NCBI RefSeq assembly: GCF_964355755.1
Contig: NC_092678.1
Location: forward strand, 9,378,422 to 9,442,421
Source of the DNA: Antedon mediterranea
Lineage: Eukaryota > Animalia > Echinodermata
Direction: 5' to 3'
Length of the DNA stretch: 64,000 nucleotides
Position numbers and translations under genes: made by a program. Positions 30,422 through 64,000 of the stretch are shown here, piece after piece (positions within the stretch are counted from its first letter, which is position 1; each line of letters begins with the position of its first letter). A model generated the notes under the pieces. It saw only the letters and a program-made list of their open reading frames with translations, was not told where the DNA came from and made no database searches.

Positions 30422-32734
30422 GTTTACTTGTTTACTTGTTTCCGGAGCTTAGCAATGCTGGGTCCGGATTCGAGGCTAGGCTATGCCTATAAGCCCCTCT
30501 TGATAATTGATAATCAACTCTTGAATATGGCGCAAATTTAAGAGGGTGGTTGGACCATGCCCGTTCAAGACCGGACTTAAATTGATTGGTTGATCTTGAA
30601 GCTACTACATCCTCCGATAACGAATTCCATAATATAATAGCTTTTCGACCAAATGAGTCTGTCATCCAATTTGTGCGTGAGAACTTTTATTTAAATTTTA
30701 ATTTAAAAGAATGACCACGTGTTCTAACATGTTCATCACGCTCAAAAAAAGAATCAGCAGAAATACTATCCACTCCATGTAAAATTTTTAAAATCTGTAT
30801 CAAATGAGCTCTTTGCCTTCTGTATGCGAGAGTAGGTAGGTTGAGAATTTTCAGCCTTTCTGAATAATGTAAATGACGAATGGAAAAAATAAGCTTGGTG
30901 GCACGTTCTTGGACTTTTTCCAATAGGTCTTCCTCCTTGCAATGTAGCGAGTTAAAAACAACGTTGCAGTATTCTAAGGTCGGACGAATAATAGCTTTAT
31001 ATAAACGAAGAAACCCATCCATATTTAAAAACTTGAAAGCTCGATATACCATGCCCAACTTCCGATTTGCCCTCATTGCTACATCTGCCACATGTACATT
31101 AAAAACAAGTTTAGAGTCAATAGTAACACCGAGGTCTTTTTCATGATCAACTTCATTCAATAAGAAACCACGCATGGCATACAGATGTTTGTTGTTTTTC
31201 TTCCCAAAGTGCATTACTTTGCACTTACCCTCGTTAAAAGGTAATTGCAATTTTTCAGACCAGTCACATGCTTTCTCTAAATCTTCTTGTAAAACTTGAG
31301 CATCATTCACAGTGTTAACTACTCTATACAATTTAGTATCATCTGCAAACATGCGTACAGAGGAAGAAATAACAGAAGGTAAATCATTTATAAACATAAT
31401 GAAAAGAACAGGTCCAACAACGCTTCCTTGCGGGATACCACTACGAACATCAGCCCAATCTGAAACACATCCATTGACACTAACCCGTTGTTGTCTATCG
31501 TTAAGAAATTCTTGAAACCAGTTTAGAAGTTTACCTCTAATACCCAATGCACTCATTTTCAGAAGGAGTCTATGATGAGGCACACTATCGAAAGCCTTCT
31601 TGTAGTCAAGGTAGATACAATCAAAACAATCCTGATTATCAAAATAAGAAAACCAGTTTTCAAGAACATCAAGTAATTGTAAAGCACAGGAACGACCTTG
31701 CCGGAAACCAAATTGCTCATAACAAATAAGTGAGTGATGTTCAAAAAAGTCCAATAATTCCTTCCTGATAATTCTCTCCATAATTTTACCAACTACCGAA
31801 GTTAAACTCACAGGTCTATAGTTGCTTGGGTCAGACTTCACTCCTTTTTTAAAAATCGGTACCACTGTAGCCCGTTTCCAACTATTAGGGACGGCTCCTT
31901 CTTGAAACAATTTCGTAAAAATAATATGGAGGGGATAGCAAATGATATCCTTTAGTTCGACTAAGATGCGTGGGTGAATACCATCAGGTCGACCAGCAGT
32001 TTTAGTAATATTCAACATTGATAAAATATTGAGATTTCGTCACAAGGAAAGTCAACTTGAGATAAAAAAAAATCCTCTGAAATGACATCAACAGCCGGTA
32101 CATTCGAACAATTTTCATCGAGAAATACACTACTAAAAAACGTGTTTAGCAAATCAGCCTTATCCTTGTCATCAGACACATGCCTTCCATTACTATCAGT
32201 TAAGTTGGGAATACCAGACTTTATATTGATCTGAGAAGTGAGATACCTCCAAAAAGACTTTTCATTAGATTTGATCTCAATTGCTATTTTATTTTCGAAG
32301 TCAGATTTACTACATCGAATCAGATCTACTGTTTGATTTCTTACTTGGACAAACTTCGACCAATTTGCTAACACACATACTTTTTGTTTTCTCTTGGCCT
32401 TTACATACTGTTTCCAACATTTATTTTTTTTGTCAATCTGCTTATCAATTTTTTTGTTCATCCAAAGGGGTTTTCTTCCGTGACAAACCTTCCTCATTGG
32501 GATACACTCATCAATATTCTTCGCAAGTACATGCTCAAACTCGTCCCACGATTGAATATCTGATTTATCATTGAAAACCACATCCCGATCTACCAAACCA
32601 ATTTTCTCGCGCAAGAAATCATAGTTACCATGCCTGTAACTTCGAATATTTGGTTCAATTCTGTCATCTCTTACAAGATCCAATGAAAAATGTAACATCA
32701 TATGGTCGCTTTTACCCAGTGGTGGAGACTGCAT
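30422..32734 (-). mobile_element. 5'-truncated CR1-clade LINE; ORF2 from the end of the endonuclease through RT, broken near 32015 and 30687
   Basis: PPLGKSDH (end of APE domain), GPDGIHPR-like motif, NYRPVSLTS, QFGFR, YLDYKKAFDSVPH, SGIPQGSVVGP, MFADD, EKDLGV, RTRGHSFKL. 3' tandem tail (AACAAGTA)2 at 30422-30440. Confidence 0.95.
30687..32018 (-). pseudogene. CR1 ORF2 reverse transcriptase segment (443 aa)
   Basis: Full set of non-LTR RT motifs, separated from the neighbouring ORF2 segments by frame disruptions. Confidence 0.92.
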
Positions 32735-32926
32735 AATTTTTTTTTTCTTTTTGTGGGATCATCCCACTTTTATTTCAAACAAACATCATATAAAAACAGG
32801 AATATATATTTATGCAATTGCAATTTTGTTATCTGTTTGATTACTAATGATTTTTGTATTTGCTTCTATACCAATTATCATTATTCACCATAGTTATTTT
32901 CTATTTTGTATACATGTCATCATCAA

Positions 32927-36646: not shown

Positions 36647-38590
36647 AATTTTAAAATTCTAATTTTGATCCTTTTATTTTTTGAATAACTAGTTACTATG
36701 GCTCTATAAGATGATGTTAGCACAATATATTTGCATAAATGGCAATATTATAGCATAATTTTAGAATTTTAAACAAAGGAAATTTTGACCATTTTTCGGA
36801 AAAAAAATCCTATGGTCCCCCGAAGGGAAATTGTTTGATAAATGGCCAAATTTCGACCTTTTATTTCTTGACATAACTTGTTACTATGGCTCTATAAGAT
36901 GATGTTAACACAATATATGCCCATAAATGGCAATATTATAGCCTAATTATAGAATTTTGAAAATTGAAAATTTTTGCAATTTTTCGAAAAAATTCCTATG
37001 GTCCACCGCAGGGAAATTTTTGCAAAAATGGCCAAACTTCAAACCTTTTATTAGCCGCAGGGAAATTTTTTTCGCTTTTCTGTAGTTTTTGAACTGTTTT
37101 GATGTACAGAAAAGTTTTAAAGTACATTACTTTTTGAAAGTTCATTTATTTCTTAGAGCACGCAACTTATTGTTGTTGGCGTTGTTTTTTTGACATAACT
37201 AGTTACTATGCCTCTATAAGATGATGTTAACACAATATATGTGCATAAATGGCATTATTATATTCTAATTATTGATTTTTAAAAGGTGGAAATTTTGGTC
37301 GTTTTCGACCCTTTTATATTTTGACATAAGTAGTTGCTGTTGCTCTATAAGATAATGTTAGCACAATGTATGTGCATAAATGGCAATACTATAGCCTAAT
37401 TATAGAATTTTAAAAATTGGAAATTTTTTCCATTTTTCGAAAACAATCGTATGGTCCCCCGCAGGGAAATTGTCGCAAAAATGGCGAAATTTCAAACCTT
37501 TTATTTTTTTAAATAACTAATTACTATGGCTCTATAAGTTGATGTTTACACAACATATGTGCATAAATGGCAATATTATAGTCTAATTATTGAATTTTAC
37601 AAAGGTTGAAATTTTGGTCATTTTTCGAAAAATAGCCAAATTTCGACCCTTATATTTTTTGACATAACTAGTTACTCTGGCTGTATAAGATGATGTTAGC
37701 ACAATATATTTGCAGAAATGGCAATATTATAGCATAATTTTCGAATTTTAAAAAGTGTAAATTTTCCCAATTTTTCGAAAAAAAATCTTATGGTCCCCTG
37801 CGGGGAAATTTTCGATGCCCAAATTTCGACCCTTTTATTTTTTGACATAACTAGTTACCGATGGCTCTATAAGATGATGCTAACACAATATATTTGCATA
37901 AATACCAATATAATAGCATAATTATTGAATTTTAAAAAGTGAAAATTTTGGCCATTTTTCGAAAAAATTCTTATTTTTTTGCTGGGAAACTTTCGCAAAA
38001 ATGGCCAAATTTCAAACCTTTTATTTTTTAACATAACTAGTTACTATGGCTTTTTTTAAGATGATGTTAGCACAATATATTAGCATAAATGGCAATATTA
38101 TAGCATACTTTATTAATTTTAAACAATAGAAATTTTGACAATTTTTCGAAAAAAAATCCTATGGTCCTCCGTAGTGAAATTTTTCGAAAAATGGTCAAAT
38201 TTCGACCCTTTTATTTTTTAGTCGCGTGAACGCGACTCAATAGTTCACTATGTCTGTCGGTCGGTCTGTCGGTCTGTCGGTCTGTCTGTCGGTCCGGTAT
38301 CACTAACTGTTTTGATGTACAGACAAGTTTTAAAGTACATTACTTTTTGAAAGTTCATTTTTTTCTGAGAGCACGCGACTTATGGCTGTTGGCCTTGTTT
38401 ACATAACTAGTTACTATGGCTCTATAAGATGATGTTAGGACAATATATTTGCATAAATGGCAATATTATAGCATAATTTTCAAATTTTTTAAAAAGTGGA
38501 AATTTTTGCAATTTTTCGAAAAAATTACACAGGAAAATTTTCGAAAAATTGCAAATTTCAACCCTTTTTATTTTTTGAGATAACTAGTTA
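36647..38590 (-). repeat. ~187-bp satellite in inverted orientation, with two more DINE-like inserts (37070-37186 partial; 38219-38398)
   Basis: Reverse complement of the 23.9-29.4 kb monomers. Hairpin AGTCGCGT-GA-ACGCGACT at 38220-38237 followed by (GTCG/GTCT)n. Confidence 0.93.
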
Positions 38591-38617
38591 AGTAGTATAT
38601 GGAGTACTTCAGTCCAA

Positions 38618-38925
38618 AAAGGAATGTCATACCCCCAGGGCATATTTCATATTTCTATTGTTTAATTTCCAGGTATTGTAATAATAATTAGTGAAAGGTC
38701 ATTCTTTGTACCAGACCGGAAAGGAATGTCATATCCCCAGGGTATATATTATATTTTCTATTGTTTAATTTCCTGTTATTGTAATATTAATTAGCGAAAG
38801 GTCATTCTTTGTTAGAGAAGGGGGTTTGTTATTTTTGGCGGGGTTTTCGTTTTGGCCTGGGTTATAATTGTAGTTGGTGATGAATTTGTATTTTAAATAT
38901 ATTAGTGAAGGTAGTTCTTTGTTTG
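38618..38925 (+). repeat. Subterminal direct repeats (~103 bp, two copies plus a partial third)
   Basis: AAGGAATGTCATA.CCCCAGGG...TAG.GAAAGGTCATTCTTTGT near 38619 and 38721; partial TTAGTGAAGGTAGTTCTTTGT near 38902. Confidence 0.85.
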
Positions 38926-39147
38926 AGGATTGCTATTGTTATTTTTAGGCGGTTTGACCATTGCATAGGTCACCTTTGTTTAGTATATCCTAATTTCTTT
39001 TGTTCATTGTTCTTTTTGTTTGGTACAATAGTTTTGTTTTTGATATTTTAGAGCCGTTTCTTTTTAGACATTGTAAGAAGAGGGACTGCTTTTTGTAACC
39101 TTTCCAGTTGTTTCGTCTATTTTAACGTAGAGTTACAGTATTTCGCT

Positions 39148-39699
39148 ATGTCTGGAAGTATAGATTTTTCGTTAGGTAGCTGTGTAGATACAGTTATAAT
39201 TATTAGCGATGATGAGGAGACTGTTGTTACAGGTAACGATATCGGTGATCGGTACATGCGGACCAATGAGGGTGTACCCGTCGGTGTTGTTGAAGGAGTT
39301 GAGAGGGGTAGCCGGGCTACAAGTTGTATATTTACGTACGTAGATGAGGTAGAGAGAGAATTTTTATTGAAATTGGAATATTTAGCCAGAGAAGTGTTTG
39401 TTTCTCAAATGTTAAACATGTGCTGGATGTTAAGCAAAGCGGCTTGTTATGGTTGCGAATTTGATAGGCCTGGTCAAAAAGATCATGACTTCTGCTGTAT
39501 GAAATCTCCAGAAGAACAGATTGACTATTTTTATAGGGAGGTTCTGGATAAAGAGTATGTTACAGACGATACCGTGTACAGTGAGTTGAATAAGTACGAG
39601 GAATATTCATTACCACGGTATAGACATTTTGTTTACTTTCTCGTAAATACCTTGACTAATTCAGAGAACCTGTATAAGTTATTGTGTGAGGATATCTAA
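39148..39699 (+). CDS. 183-aa acidic hypothetical protein with CxxC-x4-PxQxxH-xxCC putative metal-binding motif
   Basis: Intact ATG-to-TAA ORF in AT-rich DNA with non-repetitive composition; motif ACYGCEFDRPGQKDHDFCC. Confidence 0.72.
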   Translation: MSGSIDFSLGSCVDTVIIISDDEETVVTGNDIGDRYMRTNEGVPVGVVEGVERGSRATSCIFTYVDEVEREFLLKLEYLAREVFVSQMLNMCWMLSKAACYGCEFDRPGQKDHDFCCMKSPEEQIDYFYREVLDKEYVTDDTVYSELNKYEEYSLPRYRHFVYFLVNTLTNSENLYKLLCEDI

Positions 39700-39855
39700 A
39701 ATGTGTTTCGCACGTGCCACGGAAAAACAATTGACCGGAAAACAAACAATTAACAATGCTTTAATCCGCACGCGTTGTAGGGAGACAATTGACAGGAAAA
39801 ACAATTAATATCGCTTTAGGCTAATTACTGTTAGGGCTACCTCCTTACTGAGCTG

Positions 39856-39886
39856 TATATATATCGGACCTGATTCAAACGCAGTT
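39856..39886 (+). promoter_or_regulatory. TATA box and initiator-like CAGT upstream of the PC4-AlkB gene
   Basis: TATATATAT at 39856-39864, CAGT 26 nt downstream at 39882, ATG at 39901. A duplicated ACAATTGAC.GGAAAA motif lies at ~39727 and ~39785. Confidence 0.5.
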
Positions 39887-39900
39887 TTAAAGTACCAACG

Positions 39901-41595
39901 ATGACTTCTACCTCCTCGAAGTTATTGGATCCTAGAAAATTTTTCAACGGTCAAACGAACGATTTGAGTAAAGCAGCGAAGCCGTCAACAAGTAAAAAAT
40001 CATTTCACTCTGCCTCAGGAATGAGCGCTAGGGATTATGCCGAAATGACCGGTGGTGAACCAAAGATTACAATAACTTCAACGAATCGGATTTTTCTGTC
40101 TGAAAAACGCCATGTAGTGGCCCAGCGCTGGGGTGAAGTTGTTTATGTATGCCTCAGAGAATTTTATCAAACGGAAGAAAATTGTGCTTTCAAACCTGGA
40201 CCTCTAGGTATTAATTTACCCGTTCTGCTGTGGCAAAAACTTTTTACCAATATTGATTTAATTCTTCAAGTCCTAGACGACTTGCAAAGAGACATTAACT
40301 TGGTGGAGGCAGTAAGAATCCCACTTTCGGACATACTACATGTGGTAGTTAGTAGCTGGAAAGAAGAGCAGTTTGTATGTATTCGCCATTGTTACCAGGC
40401 CGAAGAAGGAGGCGAGTTTAAACCCGGCAAAAAAGGTATAAACCTTCCAAAGAGACAGTGGTACAAGTTAATTGAACAACACGGTGAAATTCAAAAGATG
40501 ATTGAAGAGGTTGATAATGATAATGTGGTTACCGTCGATGGTGGTGGTGACGAAAACGATAACGGAGGACGTTTATTCAATTCAGAGCAACAATTGCTAT
40601 CCCCTGATGGGTTATCTGTGCAAAAGATAACAGGGGAAAATTTAGATTGTGATTACCTTCAACTTCTTGGTAAAGAAACAGCCGATACATTGTTTAAAAA
40701 ATGTGAGGAAGAGATTGACTATTTTACCGGTGATCTTGCAAAGGTGAAAGTGTACGGAAAGTGGTTTAATATTCCTAGAAAACAGGTTAGTTCCATTATT
40801 TTTTTTTATCCGTGGTTTTGTATTAATGACTTGTTAATTACTTGTAGGCCTATATCGTTTCCTTTGTTTTTCTTTATTTACCGCTGGGTAGCTATAGGTG
40901 TAATTTACTCTTTTACTGTAAATGATTTTATTTGGGCGTGTTCATTTACATCTCGCCAAATAAGATTCTTAAATTACTATGTAATGTATGGTTTTCCCCT
41001 CTGCAGGTTTCGTTTGGCGATTCGGGCTTAACTTACAAATATTCAGGCAATACAGTACCAGCTTTACCGTGGCCACCATTCCTGAAAGATCTCCGCAATC
41101 TTTTAAAAACGGTTACAGGACATTATTTCAATTTTGTCTTGGTCAATCGGTAAATATTCTTGTTTATTATTTTGTTTGTTTTAATTCTATTGTGTTATTT
41201 TACTTACATACATCCCCCCTCCCCCAATTGGGTGTTTTTTTTTTAATCTCATGTTAAAATACTTTATTTTCTATTGTATTTTGTCGTTACTCTATAGATA
41301 TGCTACTGGCAGTGATTACATTGGCGAACACAAAGATGATGAAAAAGACATGAATCACTTTAGTCTAATCGCCTCTGTATCATTGGGGCAAACACGTATG
41401 TTTAGATTTCGACATGGTGATGCGCGAGGTAAGAGTCCCAAAAGAATAATTGAGCCAGTAACTGTTGATCTTAAACACGGTACATTATTAATGATGAATT
41501 ATCCCACTAATGAGTACTGGTACCATTCACTGCCTAAAAATCAATCCATCAAGCTACCAAGAATAAATCTTACGTTTAGAGATATTAAAAGATGA
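39901..41595 (+). CDS. Tandem PC4/Sub1 ssDNA-binding domains fused to an ALKBH2-like Fe(II)/2OG dioxygenase; exons 39901-40785, 41007-41149, 41298-41595 (441 aa)
   Basis: PC4 repeats: RHVVAQRWGEVVYVCLREFY...FKPGPLGINL...W and HVVVSSWKEEQFVCIRHCY...FKPGKKGINL...QW. ALKBH2-like part: LDCDY...EEEIDYFTGDLAKVKVYGKW...PRKQ|VSFGDSGLTYKYSG...FNFVLVNR|Y...IGEHKDDE...IASVSLG...GTLLMMNYPTNEYWYHSLP...RINLTFR. GT-AG introns 40786-41006 (phase 0) and 41150-41297 (phase 2) give one 1326-nt frame. Confidence 0.92.
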
Positions 41596-41737
41596 GAGAA
41601 ATTTTACGCAAACATTAGGCCTAACAGTCTTTAATAGTGATTACAGATCTCAAGAACATCAACTGTTCATGATCTGTTATCATATAGTGTAATAGTACCA
41701 GTTAAATTACTTTTGTGATGATATTTCTACAAATGGT

Positions 41738-41942
41738 TGTATTATTGTATTGAAGTTAATTCACTTAGATATAGGGCTAATTCCATTGATCGTTAATAAT
41801 AATGTGATTGTTTGTCATTGTGTGGATAATGATTAACTTTACGAAACAAATAGCTGTATTATTGTATTGAAATTCACTTAGATCTATACCTAATTCCATT
41901 GATCGTTAATATTCATGTGATTGTTTCCCATTGTGTGGATAA
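41738..41942 (+). repeat. Two ~90-bp direct repeats (offset ~117) downstream of the AlkB gene
   Basis: TGTATTATTGTATTGAA...CTAATTCCATTGATCGTTAATA...CATTGTGTGGATAA occurs twice. Confidence 0.85.
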
Positions 41943-43646
41943 AAATTAAATAATCTCTTAAAAGTAAATTGTATTGTATTTCTAATTGTTATAAATATAT
42001 GTAACAGTTTCTTATGTTTTTAACAAGTGTGCAAGTTTTTCTTTAAAGCGTTTTAACCGTTTAGTTAGTAATTTCAAGAGAAACAAGTACTTGAAACGGA
42101 TAAATGACGTCGTAACGTAGGAAACGGACTGGTAGATTAAAAGAAACGTTATAGGCCTAATAACACTAATAATAACAAACATATATTTCGTACATATTCT
42201 AAATATGTGTGATTAATATTATTACAATAAAGACCATGTAGATCTACAGTGGTTTTACTGTAAGTGGTATTGTAAATAAATTTTGAATTCAATGGTGAGA
42301 AATAACAGATGTCTGCGTATTATTTAATATTACTTTTATCATAATTGCAAACACAGGTCGATCATAATTTGAAGGCAGAAAGACGTTTTGGTTGCCAATT
42401 GTATTTTCTTTACACTTAACACATTTTAACAGAAAAACAGAAAAGCTAGACATTCAACCGGACCCCAAACATTGAAATTTGTTTACAAGCAGGTTATTTC
42501 CATTAGCTATTCTAAGGCCTACTTTTTTTTCTACATGTTTATCTTTCGACTATTTTTTAAAAACTTTTTTTATGAATCTTCCGCTGTTTCGTTAGCAATT
42601 TTACAGGCCTGTGTCTTCGCTCTGTAGGCTTAACCTTATAACGACATACCTTTTAACGGTTCTTTTTAAATGTTCTCTTATTGATGGTTACCTATAGCTC
42701 TCTCACATCCCTTAATCTAGCACCATTTTATGAAATATTCCTCAGTAAGGGGTTTATTACTGACGCTAGGTATCATCGACAGGGAATATTAGACAAAACA
42801 TGACGTCACTATTTTTAAAAGGTTTTCTCATTCAAGAACAGCTGACGTCAATGAAGAATACGTTACAACACGATAACTACCGGACAGCAGCAAAAAACAT
42901 CAACCAATCACAAATCTGAGCTACTAGTTAAATAATAAATAAACGAAACAAAGACAAAAGAAAAGGAAATACACCAAACAAATCATTTTCGTCTCGAAGT
43001 TATATTAACGTAAATTTTTCCTTCACAAAATCACAGGAGACGCGTTTAACGTTTCCAATCACATTATTCAACTCATCAGGTGTAATATCTTTACACAAAT
43101 CCTTTATATCTTTACTTTTTTTCTTACCAGCTCATATCAAACATGAATATTACTCTAAAGGATGTATACTCAATGTACGATAACCCCACCCCCCTTTTTT
43201 TTTTTTTTAAAGTCTGCATAGCGGCACGAGAAAACAATTGATAATGGGGATAAAAAGTTTGTCTTACATTGTTATACAGTAACCTGTGTTTTTCTTTGTT
43301 TACACCATCTCATTGTTTATAATTATGTATGTTAATGTCGATAGTGTTTCTCTAGTACAGTTTATTACTTGTTTATACTCGTAAAGTTGGCAGGCCTCCA
43401 TGTTGTTGGTATATTTTGTAAAAATTGTATTTATGTTTACTTTTTAAAAATCGTTTTATTTGCATTTTATCTCCTCCTGGTTAAAATGAGTGTGATGTTG
43501 CTTAAAAAGTTAACAAGTATAACCACTAAAACGGTTCATTACCTGTAGGAAATCATCAACATTGTAACATACTGTAAACAATACAAATTAGTTTCACAAA
43601 TTATTTAAACAATAACACTAACAAATTATTAGAATTTAAGAAAATA

Positions 43647-43925
43647 AAGGTGTACAGATTTAATTTCGATAAAAAAAGTGTACAAAAATAACTTTACAAA
43701 AAATGTACAGAATAAATTAACAACAACAAAAAATCACACATTAAACTGATTCTTATAAAGGTGTACAGTGTACATTGGCCACAGACATTCTTAAAACGAG
43801 GTGTACAGCTTTTATTTAAAAAAAAAGTATACAAAAATAATTTTACAAAAAGTGTATAGAATAAATTTACAAAAAAAGTTCACACATTAAACTAATGCTT
43901 ATAAAAGTGTATAGACCTAGTGTAC
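43647..43925 (+). repeat. Two ~150-bp direct repeats rich in GTGTACA
   Basis: AGGTGTACAG...ACAAAAATAA.TTTACAAAAA...GAATAAATT...CACACATTAAACT at ~43648 and ~43799. Confidence 0.8.
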
Positions 43926-44603
43926 ATGTCGATGTGTACATGTAACGTGGCATTACCATTAAGAAACAAATACAAACCAAACACTTAACAGCTAAAACAG
44001 CATAGCGATCGTTTTCGTACGTAAAACAATACCTCTAGCAGGTATATCAACTTTAGTATTTTAAGTATAGGGCCTACACGTGACAAACACACACACACCC
44101 TCTTGAATTGTAGGTACAGGCCTTTTGCCGTTCGTAATTCAAACTGTTCGGAAAATTGAAGTTAATATTCTGAGATTAGGCCTATAGTCTATGATTGCAT
44201 TCTGCCTTCCCTCTCAGGAGCTTAGACTTATCAACGGTCTAAAAGAGCTGTAATGCAGGATGCGAAACATAAAAGTTTATTAATAAACAGTATATTATAA
44301 CGATAAAGAAACGAATGTATGATACACCAATATAACAGTACAATAACTGATTAACTGAAGACTTGAAGTCTACTGTATTCCTACAATCATTCAAGTAGAC
44401 ATTGTTTGTTGAGTGTATGATACTTTCTCCAAAGAGAATTCGAACGATGTGTTTTTTCGGACGTGTTTCTACGGTTATGTCGATAATAATTTAAAAAAAT
44501 AAAAACAAAAACAAAACAAAAAACGAACAGCCTACTAACTTCCAAAAAATCAATACCTAAATAAGCTGAACCTAACCCACTAATTACTAATCTCTTCCAT
44601 ACA

Positions 44604-44810
44604 TCAAAATCGGCCGAAAATGATCTGAACATTGAAAAGTGGACACGGTCGTCTGTTCTTCTTTTCTGTTTCCACGGCTTGTGACATCCTCGTTGGTGAT
44701 AAAGTCGTGCGGTTTACACACTTATGATGACCACATCGCATAACATGTTCAGGGAACTTATTTTTCAACTCTCTGATACAATGTTTAAATACAAGTGGAC
44801 TGGAAACCAT
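44604..44810 (-). pseudogene. Degenerate C3HC4 RING-finger-like ORF (68 aa)
   Basis: F-x2-C-x14-CGH-x2-C-x2-R-x21-CP-x-F has RING spacing. The three missing cysteines are TTT, CGC and TTC, each one substitution from TGY. Confidence 0.45.
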
Positions 44811-44831
44811 TTAGGAATAGGGTTTTCTAAT

Positions 44832-45430
44832 AATAAAAGTTGTGTAAAACTTTAGTTATGGTCAAGAGGAATTGGTCAAGACTTGGAGTAAATGGTCAAA
44901 GCCGGTGGCAAATGGTCAAGACCGAGAGAAAAATTAATGTACACCATTTTATAAGTTTATAGTCAATTATTGTGTTAACATTCATTTATGAATAAATCTG
45001 TATATGTATTCAATAATAAAAAAAAGAATAACTTTCTTATGCTTAATATCATGAATAACATATCTTTAGTGGTTAAGGTAATATATTATTTCTCTGTATA
45101 CTGCCGTCACACATATAGATAAAGAGAGACTGTCCATTAATAAAAGTTGTGTAAAACTTTAGTTATGGTCAAGGGGATTGGTCAAGACTTGAAGTAAATG
45201 GTCGAGACTTGGAGTAAATGGTCGAGACCGGGGGAAAATGGTCAAGACAGGGAGAAAATGGTCAAGACAGGGAGAAAAATTAATGTATACAATTTTATAA
45301 GTTTATAGTCACTTATTGTGTTAAATTTCATTTATGATTAAACCTGTATACGTATTCAATAATAAAAAATTAATTTTCCTTCACTTAATATCATGAATAA
45401 TATATCTTTAGTGGTTAAGGTATTATATTA
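44832..45430 (+). repeat. ~300-bp tandem duplication containing a ~20-bp ATGGTCAAGAC minisatellite
   Basis: AATAAAAGTTGTGTAAAACTTTAGTTATGGTCAAG at 44832 and 45139; the second copy has more internal units. Confidence 0.88.
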
Positions 45431-45955
45431 TTTTTTATTTTATTTTATTCAATCAAAACCAACAGCGATAAATACCGCCACTAACAGGTTTGAAACATAA
45501 AACAATACAACAGCAAAAACGGTTAACAATAAAATACAGATAAAATATATATATATATATAAAAAACATAGATTGGCATGCCATAAAAAATTTCAATTAA
45601 AACAGGTTATGCAGACTGTTCAAGAAGTGAACACATCATCGTCCTCTTAAAATAACCAAGTCTATCATTAAAAATATCGATATGATTGCTATTTAGATTA
45701 TTAAATGTATAAGGTAGTCTATGAAAAAGTCCCCTCTTAGTACAGTCGACACGGCTAAAAGGAATATGCAATAAATGTCTATTTCGTGTACGACCAGGAA
45801 CATTTAAACTAAATAGTGAAATTAATGAACAGTCATATTTAGAATTTAAAATATTATATAAAAAAACCATATCAGATATCGTTCGACGATTGCTGACAGA
45901 ATCAATGGAAAAGGCAAAATTAACACAGTTATAAGACAGGAATCGATTATTGACA
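45431..45955 (-). mobile_element. LINE 3' end fragment (CR1-like ORF2 C-terminus, 3' UTR and A-rich tail)
   Basis: RRTISDMVFLYNILNSKYDC...FSLNVPGRTRNRHLLHIP...RLPYTFN is typical of ORF2 tails. (TAAAA)n tail at 45431-45449. Confidence 0.78.
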
Positions 45956-47503
45956 TTAATTAATTTGATTAATGACAGGCGTTTGTTTGGGTTTGGGTTT
46001 ATGTAGGTCAGGTATATTTATTCCCATTTTCTTGGCGTATGACCTTGTTACTGGTCTGCAAGTAGATGTGTTTGTAATCGGGTTAAGAGATTCAGTCTCT
46101 GTAATATTAAATGCAATGGGTACAACTTGATCAATTTCGGAATCGTCGTCACGAGGGGCTCGGGAGAGAAAATCTGCTAAAACTAATTCAGTTCCTTTCT
46201 TATAACCAATTTGGAAAATGTATCCGGACAATCGTAATATTAGTTTCTGTAAACGGGGTGTACATGGCTGATCTCTTGAATTCCAAATTTGTACAATTGC
46301 TGAGTGGTCTACGAATGCATCAAATTCGCAACCCTTTAGTAAATGTCGAAATGCTGAAACGTTAATGTAAAGTCCAAATAACTCTAATTCTGTGACGCTA
46401 TATCGTTGACAGGCTTGTGGTAAGATTTTGGAATAATAACCTATTATGTGTTCTTTACCGTTTACTGTTTGTGTTAAATATGAACCTGTTGCGGTTCTTG
46501 AAGTGTCGCTATATAGCGTAAATCTACTTTCTTTTCTAGGCATTTGAAGAGTTGGTGGTTTAACCATTAAGTGTTTAATTTCGTCAAATGCTTTCAGGTG
46601 TTCAGTAGACCAAACACATTTTCGGCGTTTACTTGCGAGTGTGTGTAACGGACGTAAAATTGATTGTATTTGAGGGAAAAAATGGGATACATAATTTACT
46701 GCACCAATAAATCGTTTAGTTTCTTTATGGGTTCGTGGGACTGGCAAATTTCGGATAGCTGCACACCTGTCGCCTAATGGTGTGATACATGCGTGTCCTG
46801 AAGAATTAATCAGGATGGTGTGTCCCATATATTGCACTTTATTCTTGAATAACTTACATTTCTTTGGACAAATTCTAAAACCATTTAATTGTAGGGCTAG
46901 TAAAACGGAAACGAGGTGCTGCTTATGAGCGAATTTGTCTTGGCTAAATAAAATAATATCATCATGATGGGCGATACAGAATTCTCTAGAATTTGGGATT
47001 TCATTTAAAATTTCGTCAATCTTTGCTTGAAATATACCTGGCGAAACGTTTAATCCTTGTGCTAATCTCTTATAATAATAATGCTTTCCACCATGATATG
47101 AAGCTATACCTGTGTATTGTTGGGCATGTTTGGCTAATGGTACACAGTGGAACGCTGATTTCAAATCAATTACGCTAAGAATCTGTGCATTAGCGTTACC
47201 TATTGTTTTCAAAGTTTCGGCCAATAATGGGAATGGGTGATTAATACGTTTTATCCTGGAATTTAGATAGCGAAAGTCTGTGACAACTCTTTTATCTTTT
47301 GAATTTTTCTTTGAAACAAGAAGGACAGGGGAAGTATACGATTGGTGTCCTACTGCTAAGATTCCTAGTTTGACTAATTTGTTCAATTCGGCCTCAATAA
47401 CATGTTTGTCTTTGTCTGTCGCGAAGTATGTCGAATAAAAATGGTTCATCGTTAGAGAGGTGTATGTCAGCTTTGAAGTTTGGGCAGCTAGATAGTTCAC
47501 CAT
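45956..47503 (-). pseudogene. pol: Gypsy pol RT and RNase H segment
   Basis: SPVLLVSKK, RVVTDFRYLN, IDLKSAF, RLAQGL..SP, HHDD, YMGH, LYSDTS, YSVTELE, VDH, LADFLSR. Out of frame with the protease segment near 47430-47445. Confidence 0.92.
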
Positions 47504-48452
47504 AAAGTGAAAATGCGTTTCTGTTTTGTTGTAAGGTTTTATACAAATCTTCTTTTTCTCTATGTGTTAAAACGCTGTCTGTTAAATCAACTTGTTTTCT
47601 GATTATTTCTTCCTCGGTTAAAGATAGCAATGGGTCTGTACGTTCTAAATGTGGGTACTTGTTTGCGTTGTCATTGGTCAACTTTATTCTATCAATTGGT
47701 AGGTCGTTAGTAACTGTTACAAGGTTGGTTAAGTGAAGGCTCGCGATAGGTTGATGTGTATTTAGAGATACGTTTCTGTTTGTGTTGTTAGTGATATCAA
47801 TGTTGGTTTCTCCTCTATGTAATTTTACTAACATATCTGATGGACAAAGTTTTGAAATATGGGTGGTTGCATGTAGAACAACATCAGAATTGCGTACAAA
47901 GTCGGGAACCCTTCCTTTTAATTTAACTGTTTTAGTATCACCGGGTTTAAGAAAAATCTTGTAGACAGGACGAAAGCTAAAAATCTTTGGTCTAATGCGA
48001 AATGTGTTTTCCTTAAAATTTAAAGTACCGTCGAGTTCAGACAATGTTTCGGTTCCAAGTATCAGGTCAATACCTGTCAAATTTTTAACGATTAATGCTG
48101 AAATTTTAAATTTGTGTCCTTGGATAAATAATTCGAATTGCACTAAGTGGTTGGCATATAAGAAGTCACCGTTACCTAATCGAAATTTAGTTGTGTTCAC
48201 TTTAACTGGCTTTAAACGCGATAAATAAAGTGAGGAATTAACGTACGATTGTGAGATTATAGTTCTAGTTGAACCACTGTCAAATAAAGTTAAAACATTT
48301 CTACCATCTGGTAAATTTCCTTTAACGTAATTTCTGTCGTTAAGTAACAAATCAATATTATCTGAATTCCCTAAGTATTTTGCCTTAAAATTGTCGTATT
48401 TAGTATGGGGGGCCAGATTATAGGCGGCATCTAGTCCCCTTTTTAAAAATCC
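47394..48452 (-). pseudogene. pol: Gypsy pol aspartic protease segment
   Basis: LFDSGS catalytic motif and DLILG. The frame stays open upstream to the gag stop in the -1 frame. Confidence 0.88.
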
Positions 48453-49402
48453 TGCTGGTGGCTAGGGTAATAATTGTTTGACTGTTGGTATGGGTATGGC
48501 GGGGGATAATTTCCGTAAGAGCGGTTTTGTTGTCGGCAGTGCCTTGCTATGTGGCCTGGTTTCCCGCAGTAATAACAGGTTGGGGGAGGTTGTCTATATC
48601 TTGGGGTCGGTGGGGTCTGGAATCGGGGTTTGTAGGGGCTTGGGCTTCGGTTTCGTCTTGGGGTATAATTTCGGGTGGGGGAACGTGAGCGTCGAGTATC
48701 ATCATTAAGGGATCCTTTTGTTGTGGCTATATCTAACTTAAGAGAATTTATCTCATGTTGGAGCGATTCGAGACTATTATCTGTTTCCTTATTGATGTTG
48801 AATGAAACTTCCCGTGTGGAATCATCTATGGAAAGGTCAAGGTAATTTTGTGTGCTATTTACGATATTGTCAATAGTGGCATCGATTGGGGTGGACATGG
48901 CTACAGCTGCTCTACATTTTGGTGGAAGGGTCGAAATAAATTTATTCTTTATCTGCTGGTCAGCGTATCCAATTCTGTCTGCGGCTTGTTTGATTTTGGT
49001 TAAGTGTTTTTCGGCGTTGTCGCCAGTGGTGTAAGTAATTGAATCGTATTCTCTTATGTGCGCATAGATTGATTTGTTTTTACTAAAAATGTTGATGAAT
49101 TGGGTTTTTAAAGATTCCAGTGAATCGAACTGCTTTCCCTCAATCCAGAGTCTAGCTTGGCCCTGAAGGCTACGTTTAAAAATACTTATTACATTAATTA
49201 ATTGGGCATTGTTTACAGGGTTTTCTAAAGTGTGGGCCTCAAGGTAGTCGGTAAACGATAAGTAATGTGCACTACATTGGTCGTGATCGGTTATGGAACT
49301 GTCATATCTTTTGGGAAGGAAATCGGTTTGTCTTAGGTGGGGCACGGGGTGAGGATTGACGGGCTCATTTAAAATTACTTCGTTATCAACAACGTCGACC
49401 AT
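48443..49402 (-). CDS. gag: Gypsy Gag with CCHC zinc knuckle (319 aa)
   Basis: SLQGQARLW and LKTQF capsid-like motifs, RSxSP-rich linker, CYYCGKPGHIARHC. Confidence 0.92.
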   Translation of the reverse strand: MVDVVDNEVILNEPVNPHPVPHLRQTDFLPKRYDSSITDHDQCSAHYLSFTDYLEAHTLENPVNNAQLINVISIFKRSLQGQARLWIEGKQFDSLESLKTQFINIFSKNKSIYAHIREYDSITYTTGDNAEKHLTKIKQAADRIGYADQQIKNKFISTLPPKCRAAVAMSTPIDATIDNIVNSTQNYLDLSIDDSTREVSFNINKETDNSLESLQHEINSLKLDIATTKGSLNDDTRRSRSPTRNYTPRRNRSPSPYKPRFQTPPTPRYRQPPPTCYYCGKPGHIARHCRQQNRSYGNYPPPYPYQQSNNYYPSHQQDF

Positions 49403-49796
49403 ACTTTATAATATTAGTTAATCAAAATATCAAAAACAATTTAGTGTATATATATGTAAACTCTCACTTTTCAATCAAGGTTACAAATCAAAAATCAAAA
49501 TGGTTTTGACTTACCCCAAATGCTTCGGATCCAATTAAAAATGAATTAAAGGAATGCAAAAAGTGTTCAAAAATGTTTAAATGTTCAAACAATGAATTAA
49601 AAAAATGTTAAAAGTGTTCATCAATGTTCAAATTTTCAAACAACGAATTAAAAAAAATGCGAAAGGTGTTCATCAATGTTCAAAATGGTCAAAAAAGTAA
49701 ATGTTAAAAAAAACGATCGAAAAAAAACGGCGTGAAGTTGAAAGTGTCCAAACGAAACAGTTCTTGTCCGCTTGCTTCTGTTTTGATTCTGCTTGG

Positions 49797-50749: not shown

Positions 50750-50970
50750 CTATCTCTCTCTCGCTGATCTATCTCTCTCTCTAGCTGATCTATCTCTCTC
50801 TCTCGCTGATCTTTCTCCCTCTCGCTGATCTATCTCTCTCTCGCTGATCTATTTCTCTCTCGCTGATCTATCTCTCTCTCGCTGATCTCTCTCTCTCGCG
50901 GATCTCTCTCTCTCTTGCTGATCTCTCTCTCGCTGATCTCTATCTCTCTCTAGCTGATCTCTCTCTCGCT

Positions 50971-51047
<77 letters not shown>

Positions 51048-53975
51048 TCTCTCTCTTTCGCTGATCTCTCTCTCGCTGATCTCTCTCTCTCGCTGATCTC
51101 TTTCTCGCTGATCTATCTCTCTCTCGCTGATCTCTCTCTCTCTCTCTCGCTGATCTCTCTCTCGCTGATCTATCTCTCTCGCTTATCTCTCTCTCTCTCT
51201 CTCTCACTGATCTCTCTCTCTCGCTGATCTCTCTCTCGCTGATCTCTCTCTCTCTCTCTCTCTCTCTCTATCGCTGATCTCTCTCTCTCATTGATCTCTC
51301 TTTCTCTCTCTGATCTCTCTCTCGCTGATCTCTCTCTCTCACTGATCTCTCTTGCTGATCTCTCTCTCTTTTGCTGATCTCTCTCTCTCGCTGATCTCTC
51401 TCTCTCACTGATCTCTCTCTCGCTGATCTCTCTCTCTCTCGCTGATCTCTCTCTCTCTCGCTGATCTCTCTCTCTCTCGCTTATCTCTCTCTCTTTCTCT
51501 CGCTGATCTCTCTCTCGCTGATCTCTCTCTTTCGCTGATCCCTCTCTTTCTCGCTGATCTCTCTCTCGCTGATCTCTCTCTCTCGCTGATCTCTATCTCA
51601 CTGATCTCTCTCTCTCGCTGATCTTTATCTCGCTGATCTCTCTCTCTCTCTCGCTGGTCTCTCTCTCTCTCGCTGATCTCTCTCTCGCTGATCTCTCTCT
51701 CTCTCCCCCTCTCTCTCTCGCTGATCTCTCTTTTGCTGGTCTCTCTTTCTCGCTGATCTCTCTCTTTCTAGCTGATTTCTCTCTCGCTGATCTCTATCTC
51801 GCTGATCGATCTCTCTCTCGGTGATCTTTATCTCGCTGATCTCTCTCTCTCGCTGGTCTCTCTCTCTTTCTCGCTGGTCTCTCTCTCTCTCGCTGATCTC
51901 TCTCACTGATCTCTCTTTCTCTCTCTGATCTCTCTCTCGCTGATCTCTCTCTCGCTGATCTCTTTCCTTTTAGCTGATCTCTCTCTCTCTCTCTCTGATC
52001 ACTCTCTCACTGATCTCTCTCTCTTTCTCTCGCTGATCTCTCTATCGCTAATCTCTCTCTCGCTGATCTCTCTCTCTCGCTGATCTCTCTCTCTCACTGA
52101 TCTCTCTCTCGCTGATCTCTCTCTCTCTCTCTGATCTCTCTCTCGCTGATCTCTCTCTTTCGCTGATCCCTCTCTTTCTCGCTGATCTCTCTCTCGCTGA
52201 TCTCTCTCTCTCTCTCTCTCGCTGATCTCTATCTCGCTGATCTCTCTCTCTCTCTCTCGCTGAACTTTATCTCGCTGATCTCTCTCTCTTTCGCTGGTCT
52301 CTCTCTCTCTCTGATCTCTCTCTCGCTGATCTCTCTCTCTCTCTCTCTCTATCTCGCTGATCTCTCTTTCGCTGATCTCTCTATCTCTCGCTGATCTCGC
52401 TCTCGCTGATCTATCTCTCTCGCTGATCTACCTATCTCTCTCTCGCTGATCTATCTCTCTCTCGCTGATCTATCTCTCTCTCTCGCTGATCTATCTCTCA
52501 TTCTTTCGCTGATCTATCTCTCTCTCGCTGTTCTATCTCTCTCTCTCGCTGATCTATCTCTCTCTCGCTGATCTATCTCTCTCTCTCGCTGATCTATCTC
52601 TCTCTCGCTGATCTAACTCTCTCTTTCTGAACTATCTCTCTCTCGCTGATCTATCTCTTTCTCGCTGATCTATCTCTCTCTCGCTGATCTATCTCTCTCT
52701 CGCTGATCTATCTCTCTCTCGCTGATCTATCTCTTTCGCTGATCTATCTATCTCTCGCTGATCTCTCTCTCGCTGATCTATCTCTCTCTCGCTGATCTCT
52801 CTCTCTCTCTCTCGCTGATCTCTCTCTCGCTGATCTATCTCTCTCGCTGATCTCTCTCTCTCTCTCTCACTGATCTCTCTCTCGCTGATCTCTCTCTCGC
52901 TGATCTCTCTCTCTCATTCTCTCTCTCTATCGCTGATCTCTCTCTCTCACTGATCTCTCTTTCTCTCTCTGATCTCTCTCTCGCTGATCTCTCTCTCTCG
53001 CTTATCTCTCTCTCTCGCTGATCTCTCTTGCTGATCTCTCTCTCTCTTGCTGATCTCTCTCTCTCTCGCTGATCTCTCTCTCTCACTGATCTCTCTCTCG
53101 CTGATCTCTCTCTCTCTCTCGCTGATCTCTCTCTCTCTCGCTTATCTCTCTCTCTTTCTCTCGCTGATCTCTCTCTCGCTGATCTCTCTCTTTCGCTGAT
53201 CCCTCTCTTTCTCGCTGATCTCCCTCTCGCTGATCTCTCTCTCTCGCTGATCTCTATCTCGCTGATCTCTCTCTCTCTCGCTGATCTTTATCTCGCTGAT
53301 CTCTCTCTCTCTCTCGCTGGTCTCTCTCTCTCTCTCTCGCTGATCTCTCTCTCGCTGATCTCTCTCTCTCTCCCCCTCTCTCTCTCGCTGATCTCTCTTT
53401 TGCTGGTCTCTCTTTCTCGCTGATCTCTCTCTTTCTAGCTGATCTCTCTCTCGCTGATCTCTATCTCGCTGATCGATCTCTCTCTCGGTGATCTTTATCT
53501 CGCTGATCTCTCTCTCTCGCTGGTCTCTCTCTCTCTCTCGCTGGTCTCTCTCTCTCTCGCTGATCTCTCTCACTGATCTCTCTTTCTCTCTCTGATCTCT
53601 CTCTCGCTGATCTCTCTCTCGCTGATCTCTTTCCTTTTAGCTGATCTCTCTCTCTCTCTCTCTGATCACTCTCTCACTGATCTCTCTCTCTTTCTCTCGC
53701 TGATCTCTCTATCGCTAATCTCTCTCTCGCTGATCTCTCTCTCTCACTGATCTCTCTCTCGCTGATCTCTCTCTCTCTCTGATCTCTCTCTCGCTGATCT
53801 CTCTCTTTCGCTGATCCCTCTCTTTCTCGCTGATCTCTCTCTCGCTGATCTCTCTCTCTCTCTCTCTCTCTCGCTGATCTCTATCTCGCTGATCTCTCTC
53901 TCTCGCTGAACTTTATCTCGCTGATCTCTCTCTCTTTCGCTGGTCTCTCTCTCTCTCTCTGATCTCTCTCTCGCT

Positions 53976-54012
<37 letters not shown>

Positions 54013-57000
54013 TCTCTCTTTCGCTGATCTCTCTATCTCTCGCTGATCTCGCTCTCGCTGATCTATCTCTCTCGCTGATCTACCTATCTCTCTCTCGCTG
54101 ATCTATCTCTCTCTCGCTGATCTATCTCTCTCTCTCGCTGATCTATCTCTCATTCTTTCGCTGATCTATCTCTCTCTCGCTGTTCTATCTCTCTCTCTCG
54201 CTGATCTATCTCTCTCTCGCTGATCTATCTCTCTCTCGCTGATCTATCTCTCTCTCGCTGATCTAACTCTCTCTTTCTGAACTATCTCTCTCTCGCTGAT
54301 CTATCTCTTTCTCGCTGATCTATCTCTCTCTCGCTGATCTATCTCTCTCTCGCTGATCTATCTCTCTCGCTGATCTATCTATCTCTCTTTCTCTCGCGGA
54401 TCTATCTCTCTCTCGCTGATCTATCTATCTCTCTCTCGCTGATCTAACTCTCTCTCTGAACTATCTCTCTCGCTGATCTATCTCTCTCACGCTGATCTAA
54501 CTCTCTCTCTGATCTATCTCTCTCTCTCGCTGATCTATCTCTCTCTTGCTGATCTATCTATCTCTCTCACGCTGATCTATCTCTCTCTCGCTGATCTATC
54601 TATATCTCTCTCGCCGATCTATCTATCTCTCTCTCGCTGATCTATCTCTCTCTCGCTGATCTATATCTCTCTAGCTGATCTATCTCTCTCTCTCGCTGAT
54701 CTATCTGTGTCTCGCTGATCTATGTCTCTCGCTGATCTATATCTCTCTCGCTGATCTATCTCTCTCTCGCTGATCTATCTGTGTCTCGCTGATCTATCTC
54801 TCTCTTGCTGATCTATCTCTCTTTCGCTGACCTATATCGCTCTCACTGATCTATCTCTCTCTCGCTGTTCTATCTCTCTCCCGCTGATCTATCTCTCTCT
54901 CGCTGATCTATCTCTCTCTCGCTGATCTATCTCTCTCGCTGATCTATCTACCTCTCTCTCTCTCTCGCTGATCTATCTCTCTCTCGCTGATCTATCTATC
55001 TCTCTCTCGCTGATCTATCTCTCTCTCTCGCTGATCTATCTATCTCTCTCACGCTGATCTATCTCTCTCTCGCTGATCTATCTATCTCTGTCTCGCTGAT
55101 CTATCTATCTCTCTCTCGCTGATCTATCTATCTCTCTCTCGCTGATCTATCTCTCTCGCTGATCTATCTCTCTCTCGCTGATCTATCTATCTCTCTCACG
55201 CTGATCTATCTCTCTCTCGCTGATCTATCTATCTCTGTCTCGCTGATCTATCTATCTCTCTCTCGCTGATCTATCTATCTCTCTCTCGCTGATCTATCTC
55301 TCTCTCGCTGATCTATCTATCTCTCTCGCTGATCTATCTCTTTCTCGCTGATCTATCTATCTCTCTCTCGCTGATCTATCTATCTCTCTCTCGCTGATCT
55401 ATCTCTCTCTCGCTGATCTATCTCTCTCTCGCTGATTTATCTATCTCTCTCTCGCTGATCTATCTCTCTCTCGCTGATCTATCTCTCTCTCGCTGATCTA
55501 TCTAACTCTCTCGCTGATCTATCTATCTCTCGCTGATCTATATCTCTCTCACTGATCTATCTCTCTCTCGCTTATCTATCTCTGTCTCGCTGATCTATCT
55601 CTCTCTCGCTGATCAATCTCTCTCTCGGTGATCTATCTCTCTCTCGCTGATCTATCTCTCTCTCGCTGATCTATCTCTCTCGCTGATCTATCTATCTCTC
55701 TTTCTTTCGCTGATCTATCTCTCTCTCGCTGATCTTTCTATCTCTCTCTCGCTGATCTAACTCTCTCTCGCTGATCTATCTCTCTCTCTCGCTGATCTAT
55801 CTATCTCTTTTTCTCTCGCTGATCTATCTCTCTCTCGCTGATCTATCTATCTATCTCTCGCTGATCTAACTCTCTCTCTGAACTATCTCTCTCGCTGATC
55901 TATCTCTCTCACGCTGATCTAACTCTCTCTCTGATCTATCTCTCTCTCTCGCTGATCTATCTCTCTCTTGCTGATCTATCTATCTCTCTCACGCTGATCT
56001 ATCTTTCTCTCGCTGATCTATCTCTCTCTCGCTGTTCTATCTCTCTCCCGCTGATCTATCTCTCTCTCGCTGATCTATCTCTCTCTCGCTGATCTATCTC
56101 TCTCGCTGATCTATCTACCTCTCTCTCTCGCTGACCTATCTCTCTCTCTCGCTGATCTATCTATCTCTCTCTCGCTGATCTATCTCTCTCTCGCTGATCT
56201 CTCTATCTCTCTCACGCTGATCTATCTCTCTCTCGCTGATATATCTATCTCTGTCTCGCTGATCTATCTATCTCTCTCTTGCTGATCTATCTATCTCTCT
56301 CTCGCTGATCTATCTCTCTCTCGCTGATCTATCTCTCTCTCGCTGATCTATCTATCTCTCTCACGCTGATCTATCTCTCTCTCGCTGATATATCTATTTC
56401 TGTCTCGCTGATCTATCTATCTCTCTCTTGCTGATCTATCTATCTCTCTCTCGCTGATCTATCTCTCTCTCGCTGATCTATCTCTCTCTCGCTGATCTAT
56501 CTATCTCTCTCACGCTGATCTATCTCTCTCTCGCTGATCTATCTATCTCTGTCTCGCTGATCTATCTATCTCTCTCTCGCTGATCTATCTATCTCTCTCT
56601 CGCTGATCTATCTATCTCTCTCTCGCTGATCTATCTCTCTCTCTCTCTCTGATCTATCTCTCTCTCGCTGATCTATCTCTCTCTCTCGCTGATCTATCTA
56701 TCTCTCTCGCTGATCTATCTCTTTCTCGCTGATCTATCTATCTCTCTCTCGCTGATCTATCTATCTCTCTCTCGCTGATCTATCTCTCTCTCGCTGATCT
56801 ATCTCTCTCTCGCTGATTTATCTATCTCTCTCTCGCTGATCTATCTCTCTCTCGCTGATCTATCTCTCTCTCGCTGATCTATCTAACTCTCTCGCTGATC
56901 TATCTATCTCTCGCTGATCTATATCTCTCTCACTGATCTATCTCTCTCTCGCTTTTCTATCTCTGTCTCGCTGATCTATCTCTCTCTCGCTGATCAATCT

Positions 57001-63000: not shown

Positions 63001-64000
63001 CTCTCATTGATCTATCTCTCTCTCGCTGATCTATCTATCTCTCTCTCGCTGATCTATCTCTCTCTCGCTGATTTATCTCTCTCTCTCGCTGATCTATCTA
63101 TCTCTCTCGCTGATCTATCTCTCTCTCGCTGATCTATCTATCTCTCTCTCGCTGATCTATCTCTCTCTCGCTGATCGATCTATCTATCTCTCTCTCGCTG
63201 ATCTATATATCTCTCTCTCGCTGATCTATCTCTCTTTCGCTGATCTATCTCCCTCTCGCTGATCTATCTCTCTCGCTGATCTATCTATCTCTCTCTCGAT
63301 GATCTATCTCTCTCTCACTGATCTATCTCTCTCTCGCTGATCTATCTCTCTCTCGCTGATCTATCCCTTTCTCGCTGATCTATCCCTCCCTCGCTGATCT
63401 ATCTCTATCTCGCTGATCTATCCCTCTCTCACTGATCTATCTCTCTCTCGCTGATCTATCCCTCTCTCGCTGATCTATCCCTCTATCGCTGATCTATCTC
63501 TCTCTCGCTGATCTATCGCTCTCACGCTGATCTATCTCTCTCTCGCTGATCTATCGCTCTCTCGCTGATCTATCTCTCTCTCGCTGATCTATCTATCTCT
63601 CTCTCGCTGATCTCTCTCTTTCTCTCTCGCTGATCTATCTCTCTCTCGCTGATCTATCGCTCTCTCGCTGATCTATCTCTCTCTCGCTGATCTATCTATC
63701 TCTCTCTCGCTGATCTCTCTCTTTCTCTCTCGCTGATCTATCTCTCTCGCTGATCTATCTATCTCTCTCTCGATGATCTATCTCTCTCTCACTGATCTAT
63801 CTCTCTCTCGCTGATCTATCTCTCTCTCGCTGATCTATCCCTTTCTCGCTGATCTATCCCTCCCTCGCTGATCTATCTCTATCTCGCTGATCTATCCCTC
63901 TCTCACTGATCTATCTCTCTCTCGCTGATCTATCCCTCTCTCGCTCATCTATCCCTCTATCGCTGATCTATCTCTCTCTCGCTGATCTATCGCTCTCACG
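50750..64000 (-). repeat. GATCAGC(GA)n / GATAGATCAGC(GA)n array, inverted orientation, with kb-scale internal duplications
   Basis: (TC)nGCTGATC(TATC) units; duplicated blocks such as 55501 vs 56882 (~1.38 kb) and 51625-51906 vs ~53290-53573. Confidence 0.97.

Follow-up and report, generated by a model that had tools for sequence, protein, structure and literature searches.

The 64,000-nt stretch of the Antedon mediterranea genome analysed here (the window) holds a gene in which two PC4-like domains are joined to a complete ALKBH2-type dioxygenase. This PC4-PC4-ALKBH2 fusion is real and occurs in Antedon in many dispersed copies. It is undescribed as far as searched, and it is better read as cargo of a Maverick/Polinton than as an innovation of the host. 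In regard to what it does, the balance leans slightly towards a fusion that rides in the accessory region of the element and tethers a captured demethylase to the element's single-stranded DNA replication intermediates. The preliminary description of this DNA was right about the domains and the undescribed architecture, and its single-chain pseudo-dimer is supported by a structure prediction; it missed the dispersed family and the nearby Maverick-type end, which make the element's DNA the likelier target.

Structure of the fusion gene

After recomputing the exon and intron joins, the three pieces said to be spliced by GT-AG introns into a 441-aa frame indeed gave 441 codons with a single terminal stop (Table 1). 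The two PC4-like domains and the complete AlkB domain were likewise recovered: Pfam PC4 matches exon 1 in two places (E 3.2e-22; 78.2 bits against a cut-off of 25), Pfam 2OG-FeII_Oxy_2 matches exon 3 (E 3.1e-19), and both HxD...H and RxxxxxR are present, with HKD at 41329, WYH at 41518 and RINLTFR at 41560. Because the PC4-to-AlkB junction lies within exon 1, the fusion exists at the DNA level and splicing is not required for it. The linker contains DENDNG, known from the C-terminus of stand-alone PC4 proteins in crinoids, and the sequence following it aligns with crinoid ALKBH2; DENDNG marks the fusion junction at ~40565.

The splice is backed by paralogous RefSeq models, for example P0010, in which 426 of 440 aligned residues are identical, and exon 1 is 100% identical to an Antedon mediterranea RefSeq model. 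Intron 2 falls at the point where gene models of other animals (P0115, P0064) also break off. The RefSeq model of the window locus itself (P0001, 403 aa) exits exon 3 at the donor near 41429 and joins an exon near 43130; it consequently lacks WYH, with the distal His that is the third iron ligand, as well as RxxxxxR, and is in this respect the exception within the family.

Table 1. Features of the fusion gene and of the unit around it (positions in the window).
Feature	Position	Strand	Description
Left end of repeated unit	38591-38596	+	AGTAGT, exactly where the 186-bp satellite (to 38590) breaks off
Likely terminal-repeat region	38591-38955		~103-bp internal tandem copies; many variant contigs in 3/3 runs
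Intronless Cys/His ORF, 183 aa	39148-39699	+	CYGC, HDFC, acidic CK2-type sites, ends LLCED; same multicopy unit, 3/3 runs
Spacer, likely promoter	39700-39900	+	200 bp; duplicated 19-nt motif (39727, 39785); TATA-like run 39856-39864; promoter role inferred
Exon 1	39901-40785	+	N-terminal tail, both PC4 repeats, linker and first ~57 aa of AlkB domain in one open frame
PC4 repeat 1	40084-40293	+	Keeps equivalents of R70, F77 (as W), R86, W89 (as Y); lacks R100, K101
PC4 repeat 2	40312-40515	+	Keeps F77 (as W), R86, W89 (as Y), R100 (as K), K101; lacks R70
Acidic linker	40516-40614	+	Holds the fusion junction (~40565)
Intron 1	40786-41006	+	221 nt, GT-AG, phase 0; ancestral ALKBH2 position
Exon 2	41007-41149	+	AlkB nucleotide-recognition lid and core
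Intron 2	41150-41297	+	148 nt, GT-AG, phase 2
Exon 3	41298-41595	+	HKD, distal His (WYH), RINLTFR; the RefSeq model exits at an alternative donor inside it, near 41429
Downstream part of unit	41596-45420		Common to other copies at least to 42924; ends at LINE fragment and Gypsy

Origin of the AlkB domain

With the paralogue P0010 as query, the AlkB part matches ALKBH2 at E 6.5e-72 against 4e-23 for ALKBH3. The fused AlkB domains form one clade in the tree (support 99/98), nested in crinoid ALKBH2 (100/99), and their neighbours are the Antedon protein P0006 (83% identical, weakly supported) and the likely resident gene P0173 (81%). None of the 11 fused sequences aligned has lost any of the catalytic motifs. 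As in human ALKBH2 (3RZG, 3BTX) and crinoid ALKBH2 (P0173, P0007), the catalytic domain is complete, with HxD...H, RxxxxxR, a Val-aromatic finger and the R198/G204/K205 loop, the last retained as FRHGDARGK. The equivalent of the Val101-Phe102 base-flipping finger reads KVYGKW, with a Tyr that is also found in sea-urchin orthologues. Unlike these proteins, the fusion has an N-terminal PC4 pair, belongs to a dispersed family of at least 17 members and reads KNQ (11 of 11 fused sequences) in place of the basic loop RKK241-243. The loss of RKK was considered as an adaptation of the fusion to ssDNA and rejected: the likely host copy P0173 has KSQ at this place, so RKK was lost before the fusion arose. 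The roles of finger and loop in ALKBH2 are treated in the available parts of PMC3413135 and PMC9370705, which disagree on the strand that the RKK loop binds. On its sequence, the fusion is predicted to have 1-methyladenine (1mA) and 3-methylcytosine (3mC) demethylase activity.

The mode of capture can be read from intron 1. By a rough regular expression, 54 of 71 ALKBH2-like matches lose homology directly after PRKQ, and 51 of these 54 have Val next, as expected from read-through of a GT donor; two P0173 isoforms indicate the same intron 1 acceptor as in the fusion. Since the ancestral intron was kept and the domain is nested in crinoid ALKBH2, the enzyme was captured as genomic DNA and not as a retrocopy.

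Antedon also has the paired stand-alone ALKBH2 proteins P0006 and P0022, whose first 13 residues resemble the starts of Anneissia PC4-family proteins. With 40 comparisons made, the resemblance of the P0006 start to crinoid PC4 genes was reached by 0-1 of 1000 shuffles for three of eight comparators. P0006 is catalytically whole and, since it starts like crinoid PC4 genes, may be a second element-borne form without PC4.

The PC4 pair

Over 69 aa, the repeats share 43% identity. Among the residues with a role in ssDNA contact by PC4 (R70, F77, R86, W89, R100 and K101, according to the available text of PMC4350104), the aromatic pair and R86 are retained in both, repeat 1 has lost R100/K101 and repeat 2 has lost R70; the net charge of each repeat is -1. 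With DNA-binding residues partly eroded in both repeats, strong targeting to ssDNA is not a given.

The single-chain pseudo-dimer proposed earlier is also what AlphaFold2 predicts (pLDDT 92.7, pTM 0.86), in a model that covers the 153 aa of the PC4 pair and was built from a 19-row alignment. We take the pair to be an asymmetric pseudo-dimer, probably with a single main DNA channel. Taken singly, each repeat shows the fold of PC4, superposing on PC4/MoSub1 with rmsd 1.4-2.6 A over 65-71 residues, and the whole pair matches Pur-alpha repeats I-II (3K44) with Z 10.9 and rmsd 3.8 over 129 aligned residues at 7% identity. Intramolecular dimers like that of Pur-alpha are termed type I PC4-like domains in the available text of PMC7549692. 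The predicted dimer of two repeats in one chain is thus like those of Pur-alpha I-II, Whirly and MRP1/2; unlike them, the fusion is PC4 proper in sequence, and AlkB is absent from that part of PMC7549692. Compared with PC4, Sub1 and MoSub1 (PF02229; 1PCF, 4USG, 4BHM), the fusion shares the fold of each repeat and has Tyr at W89, as do many natural PC4 orthologues (PMC4350104, available part). It differs from them in having two repeats per chain with unequal loss of the basic contacts and Cys at the D84 position, in belonging to a divergent crinoid subfamily, and in being joined to an enzyme.

The repeats group with seven stand-alone Anneissia PC4 models and three unnamed proteins, many on contigs shorter than 2 kb, in a tree of 70 columns with weak support (90/59), and by sequence they appear to derive from a divergent multicopy crinoid PC4 family. 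The best match of the pair among viral structures (BFVD) is MOSUB of a Branchiostoma lancelet adintovirus (TM 0.79, 175 columns, E 3.8e-7), a structural likeness only, at 23% identity. Tandem PC4 as such is common: most multi-PC4 matches have two to four repeats, and algae and oomycetes have tandem PC4s as well. A DEK_C plus four-PC4 architecture was frequent among the matches (P0030, P0038, P0046 and others), with a related four-PC4 protein from a green alga.

The carrier and its surroundings

Of 21 copies of the 11-nt satellite motif that flanks the left end of the unit, 20 continue as satellite and one, at 38591, continues as AGTAGT. By chance, this would happen with a probability of 4e-4 if the breakpoint is fixed, or of 3e-3 when three motifs and 2 nt of slack are allowed, for an end that was sought after other Maverick leads. 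In the available part of PMC8097293, 5'-(AGT)2 is the commonest end motif of Mavericks/Polintons, and their accessory ORFs flank the core modules. Read from the left, the unit consists of AGTAGT, ~103-bp tandem repeats, the Cys/His ORF, the promoter-like spacer and the fusion gene, which begins 1.3 kb inside the Maverick-type end. It thus sits between terminus and interior, where accessory ORFs lie, and the tandem-PC4 fold of MOSUB adds a second likeness to the accessory genes of Mavericks/Polintons (adintoviruses). MOSUB and SSDBP occur as labels in the text of Fig. S2 of PMC8502044, in which the assignment of labels to the individual adintovirus maps is not distinguishable. Host-gene cargo is known for nematode Mavericks (PMC11131425, available part).

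The Cys/His ORF could, with little confidence, be taken for an 'Oncoid'-type accessory gene. Sequence searches found no relative of it, its Pfam match to DFF40 (E 0.007) is below the cut-off, and its structure model is unusable (pLDDT 36.9). No Pfam family was found in any frame of the downstream part of the unit. An inverted partner of the likely terminal-repeat region was not found in the window, nor was a right end or a target-site duplication, and the unit is interrupted by LINE and Gypsy sequence. Maverick core genes (protein-primed polymerase, integrase, ATPase, protease, capsids) were found neither in the 6.8-kb fragment nor in the rest of the window. The cargo of the unit has introns, unlike intact vertebrate Mavericks, which are intronless according to the available text of PMC8097293. 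All in all, the unit is likely a truncated left arm derived from a Maverick, and the window copy is probably drifting.

The remainder of the window is rich in repeats. Large blocks of GA-rich 13-23-bp satellite, an 87-bp satellite and the 186-bp repeat in both orientations occupy positions 1-38590 and 50750-64000. Within GA-rich satellite, a 3.2-kb element at 6741-9937 is bounded by perfect terminal inverted repeats of 33 bp that start with CAGGG; it has no Pfam match and is a non-autonomous cut-and-paste transposon. A 5'-truncated LINE reverse transcriptase in two frames lies at 30687-32758 on the reverse strand. On the same strand, at 45956-49405, a Gypsy-type element has gag (with zinc knuckle), protease, reverse transcriptase and RNase H in three long frames, and is cut before its integrase by a LINE fragment at ~45425-45960. 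Short coding-exon-like stretches with splice signals and no Pfam match, which may belong to a gene with introns that faces the fusion gene, are found at 43010-43580 on the reverse strand, and two TGACGTCA sites near a CCAAT box give 42760-42910 a promoter-like appearance.

Copies and distribution

In Antedon mediterranea, 17 distinct annotated proteins of the family, in five clusters, are spread over seven chromosome-size contigs (22-41 Mb). The full architecture, with both PC4 repeats and the whole AlkB domain, is found in 7 of the 17, 13 reach the C-terminal motif and 10 are partial or shortened models. The non-coding flanks are multicopy as well: all 30 bins of 38600-43400 are covered, with many variant contigs and deletion joints, in each of the three sequencing runs used out of five, whose contigs span the introns without a GT-AG joint and whose depths are not copy numbers; in addition, the tail of P0004 matches 42886-42924 of the window. 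One contig of run X1 joins 38939 to 41128 (the end of exon 2), so that the upstream ORF and the two PC4 repeats are missing from it; further joints in the run contigs leave out 464-1303 bases, and these are likely deletion derivatives of the element. There are also contigs with conserved exons but unalignable introns; their copy of origin is unassigned, so they were not counted as evidence of selection. The N-terminal extension of P0003/P0016 was not found in the window.

In a phmmer search with exon 1 against 1.84 billion representatives, no further protein with PC4 and AlkB ranked; the best 150 of 289 matches were considered, the top two being from Antedon. In a Pfam scan of 79 proteins (two Antedon paralogues and 77 of the matches) only the two paralogues had both domains. 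Were there such a fusion in another organism, it should rank high among these matches, as far as protein-annotated genomes are concerned. The protein search found no fusion in Anneissia or other echinoderms, and scans of viral and metagenome contigs gave nothing real, their sole locus (L001) being an unrelated phage match at 29%. Three Branchiostoma models that combine ALKBH2 with zinc fingers (P0125, P0188, P0115) were considered as a parallel fusion and rejected, because the final AlkB exon is missing from them and they resemble separate gene models run together.

The statement that no description of this architecture was known to its author also withstood the searches of domains and literature, which found no PC4-AlkB family and, as far as searched, no paper on PC4, AlkB and a transposon together. 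ALKBH2 was not found with PC4/SUB1 in the best 25 of 206 literature matches, nor AlkB with Polinton terms in the best 30 of 89. The main texts of PMC8502044, PMC11071296, PMC11131425 and PMC11161782 mention neither AlkB nor PC4; Repbase, subscription papers and supplementary tables could list such cargo. PC4 does not occur in the text of PMC8097293 or PMC4738411, the available part of the latter listing other AlkB fusions, and the 'PC4' of PMC11662393 is a cluster label and not the domain.

Proposed function and alternatives

Mavericks are thought to replicate by a protein-primed polymerase via single-stranded intermediates. The preliminary description had the tandem PC4 deliver the dioxygenase to unwound DNA. 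What stands of this is the predicted pseudo-dimer; the DNA that the enzyme serves is likely that of the element itself and not host transcription bubbles, given a dispersed family of this size and a Maverick-type end so close by. In such a scenario, the PC4 gene would originally have encoded the ssDNA-binding protein of the element, and recombination at the DNA level would have placed a host ALKBH2 behind it. The PC4 pair would coat displaced strands and keep ALKBH2 where lesions arise, and the fusion would remove 1mA and 3mC that could otherwise stall the element's polymerase. Both lesions arise more readily in ssDNA (PMC3413135, available part), and 3mC, which stalls forks, is also a by-product of DNA methyltransferases, according to the available text of PMC9246332. 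Falling a little short of an even chance, in our estimate, is the fuller reading that a Maverick lineage joined a host ALKBH2 to its own single-chain PC4, gaining a replication-coupled repair that is kept by selection for the element and possibly answers damage by the host DNA methyltransferases.

The explanation that competes best, although we hold it unlikely, is that a Maverick took up ALKBH2 by accident, fused in frame, and that the copies multiplied with the element while the fusion was useless to it. Young copies stay open without selection, and the intact frame of the window copy, earlier taken as a sign of recent activity or selection, is weak evidence for selection: the frame would stay stop-free in 30-54% of cases after 13-26 random substitutions, and it is intact because the copy is young. 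The window copy has eight residues found in none of seven full-length paralogues, one of them at a position otherwise conserved from human to crinoid, and six amino-acid changes among its 10 listed fixed differences. The many partial models and the internal deletion variants in the DNA contigs also fit a useless passenger. Against this, the identity between two subfamilies declines from AlkB (193-196 of 203 residues, 95-97%) to PC4 (80-87%), linker (70-76%) and N-terminus (~57%), although a recent spread of the AlkB segment could give an equally high identity there without selection. Seven of 14 listed coding variants are synonymous, compared with 24% expected (p 0.034), in a selected subset (40 of 228 and 40 of 268 variants) from runs that may represent other individuals. 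Finally, the catalytic motifs are whole not only in the fused copies but also in their sister P0006.

We regard it as improbable that the fusion is a host-directed enzyme, that is, a crinoid family, duplicated or domesticated from the element, which aims ALKBH2 at melted host DNA. Some of the seven complete models come under two or more accessions, perhaps a sign of transcript support, and host-type introns are retained. However, the copies have kilobases of non-coding flank in common, the window copy has a clean transposon-like end in satellite, stand-alone ALKBH2 genes persist alongside the fusion family, and the searches found no fusion in Anneissia or other echinoderms.

It is quite improbable, too, that the fusion counters silencing by removing or oxidising methyl marks laid by the host, or by-products of its DNA methyltransferases, instead of random damage, even though these enzymes make 3mC and co-evolve with ALKB2 (PMC9246332, available part). 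CpG is not depleted in the upstream ORF and the PC4 part (o/e 0.96-1.01), but the neighbouring Gypsy has the same ratio (1.00). Moreover, the active site is that of an ordinary ALKBH2, and ALKBH2 activity on 5mC is weak at best. Another carrier such as a Helitron/Helentron, with AGTAGT arising by chance and the fusion serving rolling-circle ssDNA, seems very improbable: Helitrons capture intron-containing host genes, and the satellite blocks around the unit contain a motif at ~38220-38300 that we take to be DINE-1/HINE-like, yet this motif is outside the breakpoint, the chance of such a match to the Maverick end motif is low, as given above, and Pfam found no Rep/helicase (RepHel) in the window.

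Viral AlkB domains offer a parallel to the fusion as Maverick cargo. Plant RNA virus replicases carry AlkB domains, and with these and the phage family PHROG 21963 (match at E 3.5e-22) the fusion would have in common that a selfish replicon brings its own alkylation-repair dioxygenase. Unlike the viral domains, its AlkB part was captured recently from an animal ALKBH2, introns included, and is attached to an ssDNA-binding fold.

If the Maverick reading is true, the fusion would be, as far as the searches reach, the first AlkB enzyme in an animal Maverick/Polinton and the first PC4-AlkB fusion anywhere, and, if it is a replication-coupled repair enzyme, the equivalent, in a DNA-virus-like element, of the AlkB domains that plant RNA viruses carry. 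It would also assign a function to the PC4-like accessory genes of Mavericks, so far little studied, and would argue that ssDNA stays exposed during Maverick replication for long enough that alkylation is of consequence. Found in one genus so far, it is a young, datable capture, with the donor gene, the donor PC4 family and the junction all visible, and it represents a natural, predicted ssDNA-tethered ALKBH2 that could easily be tested in vitro.
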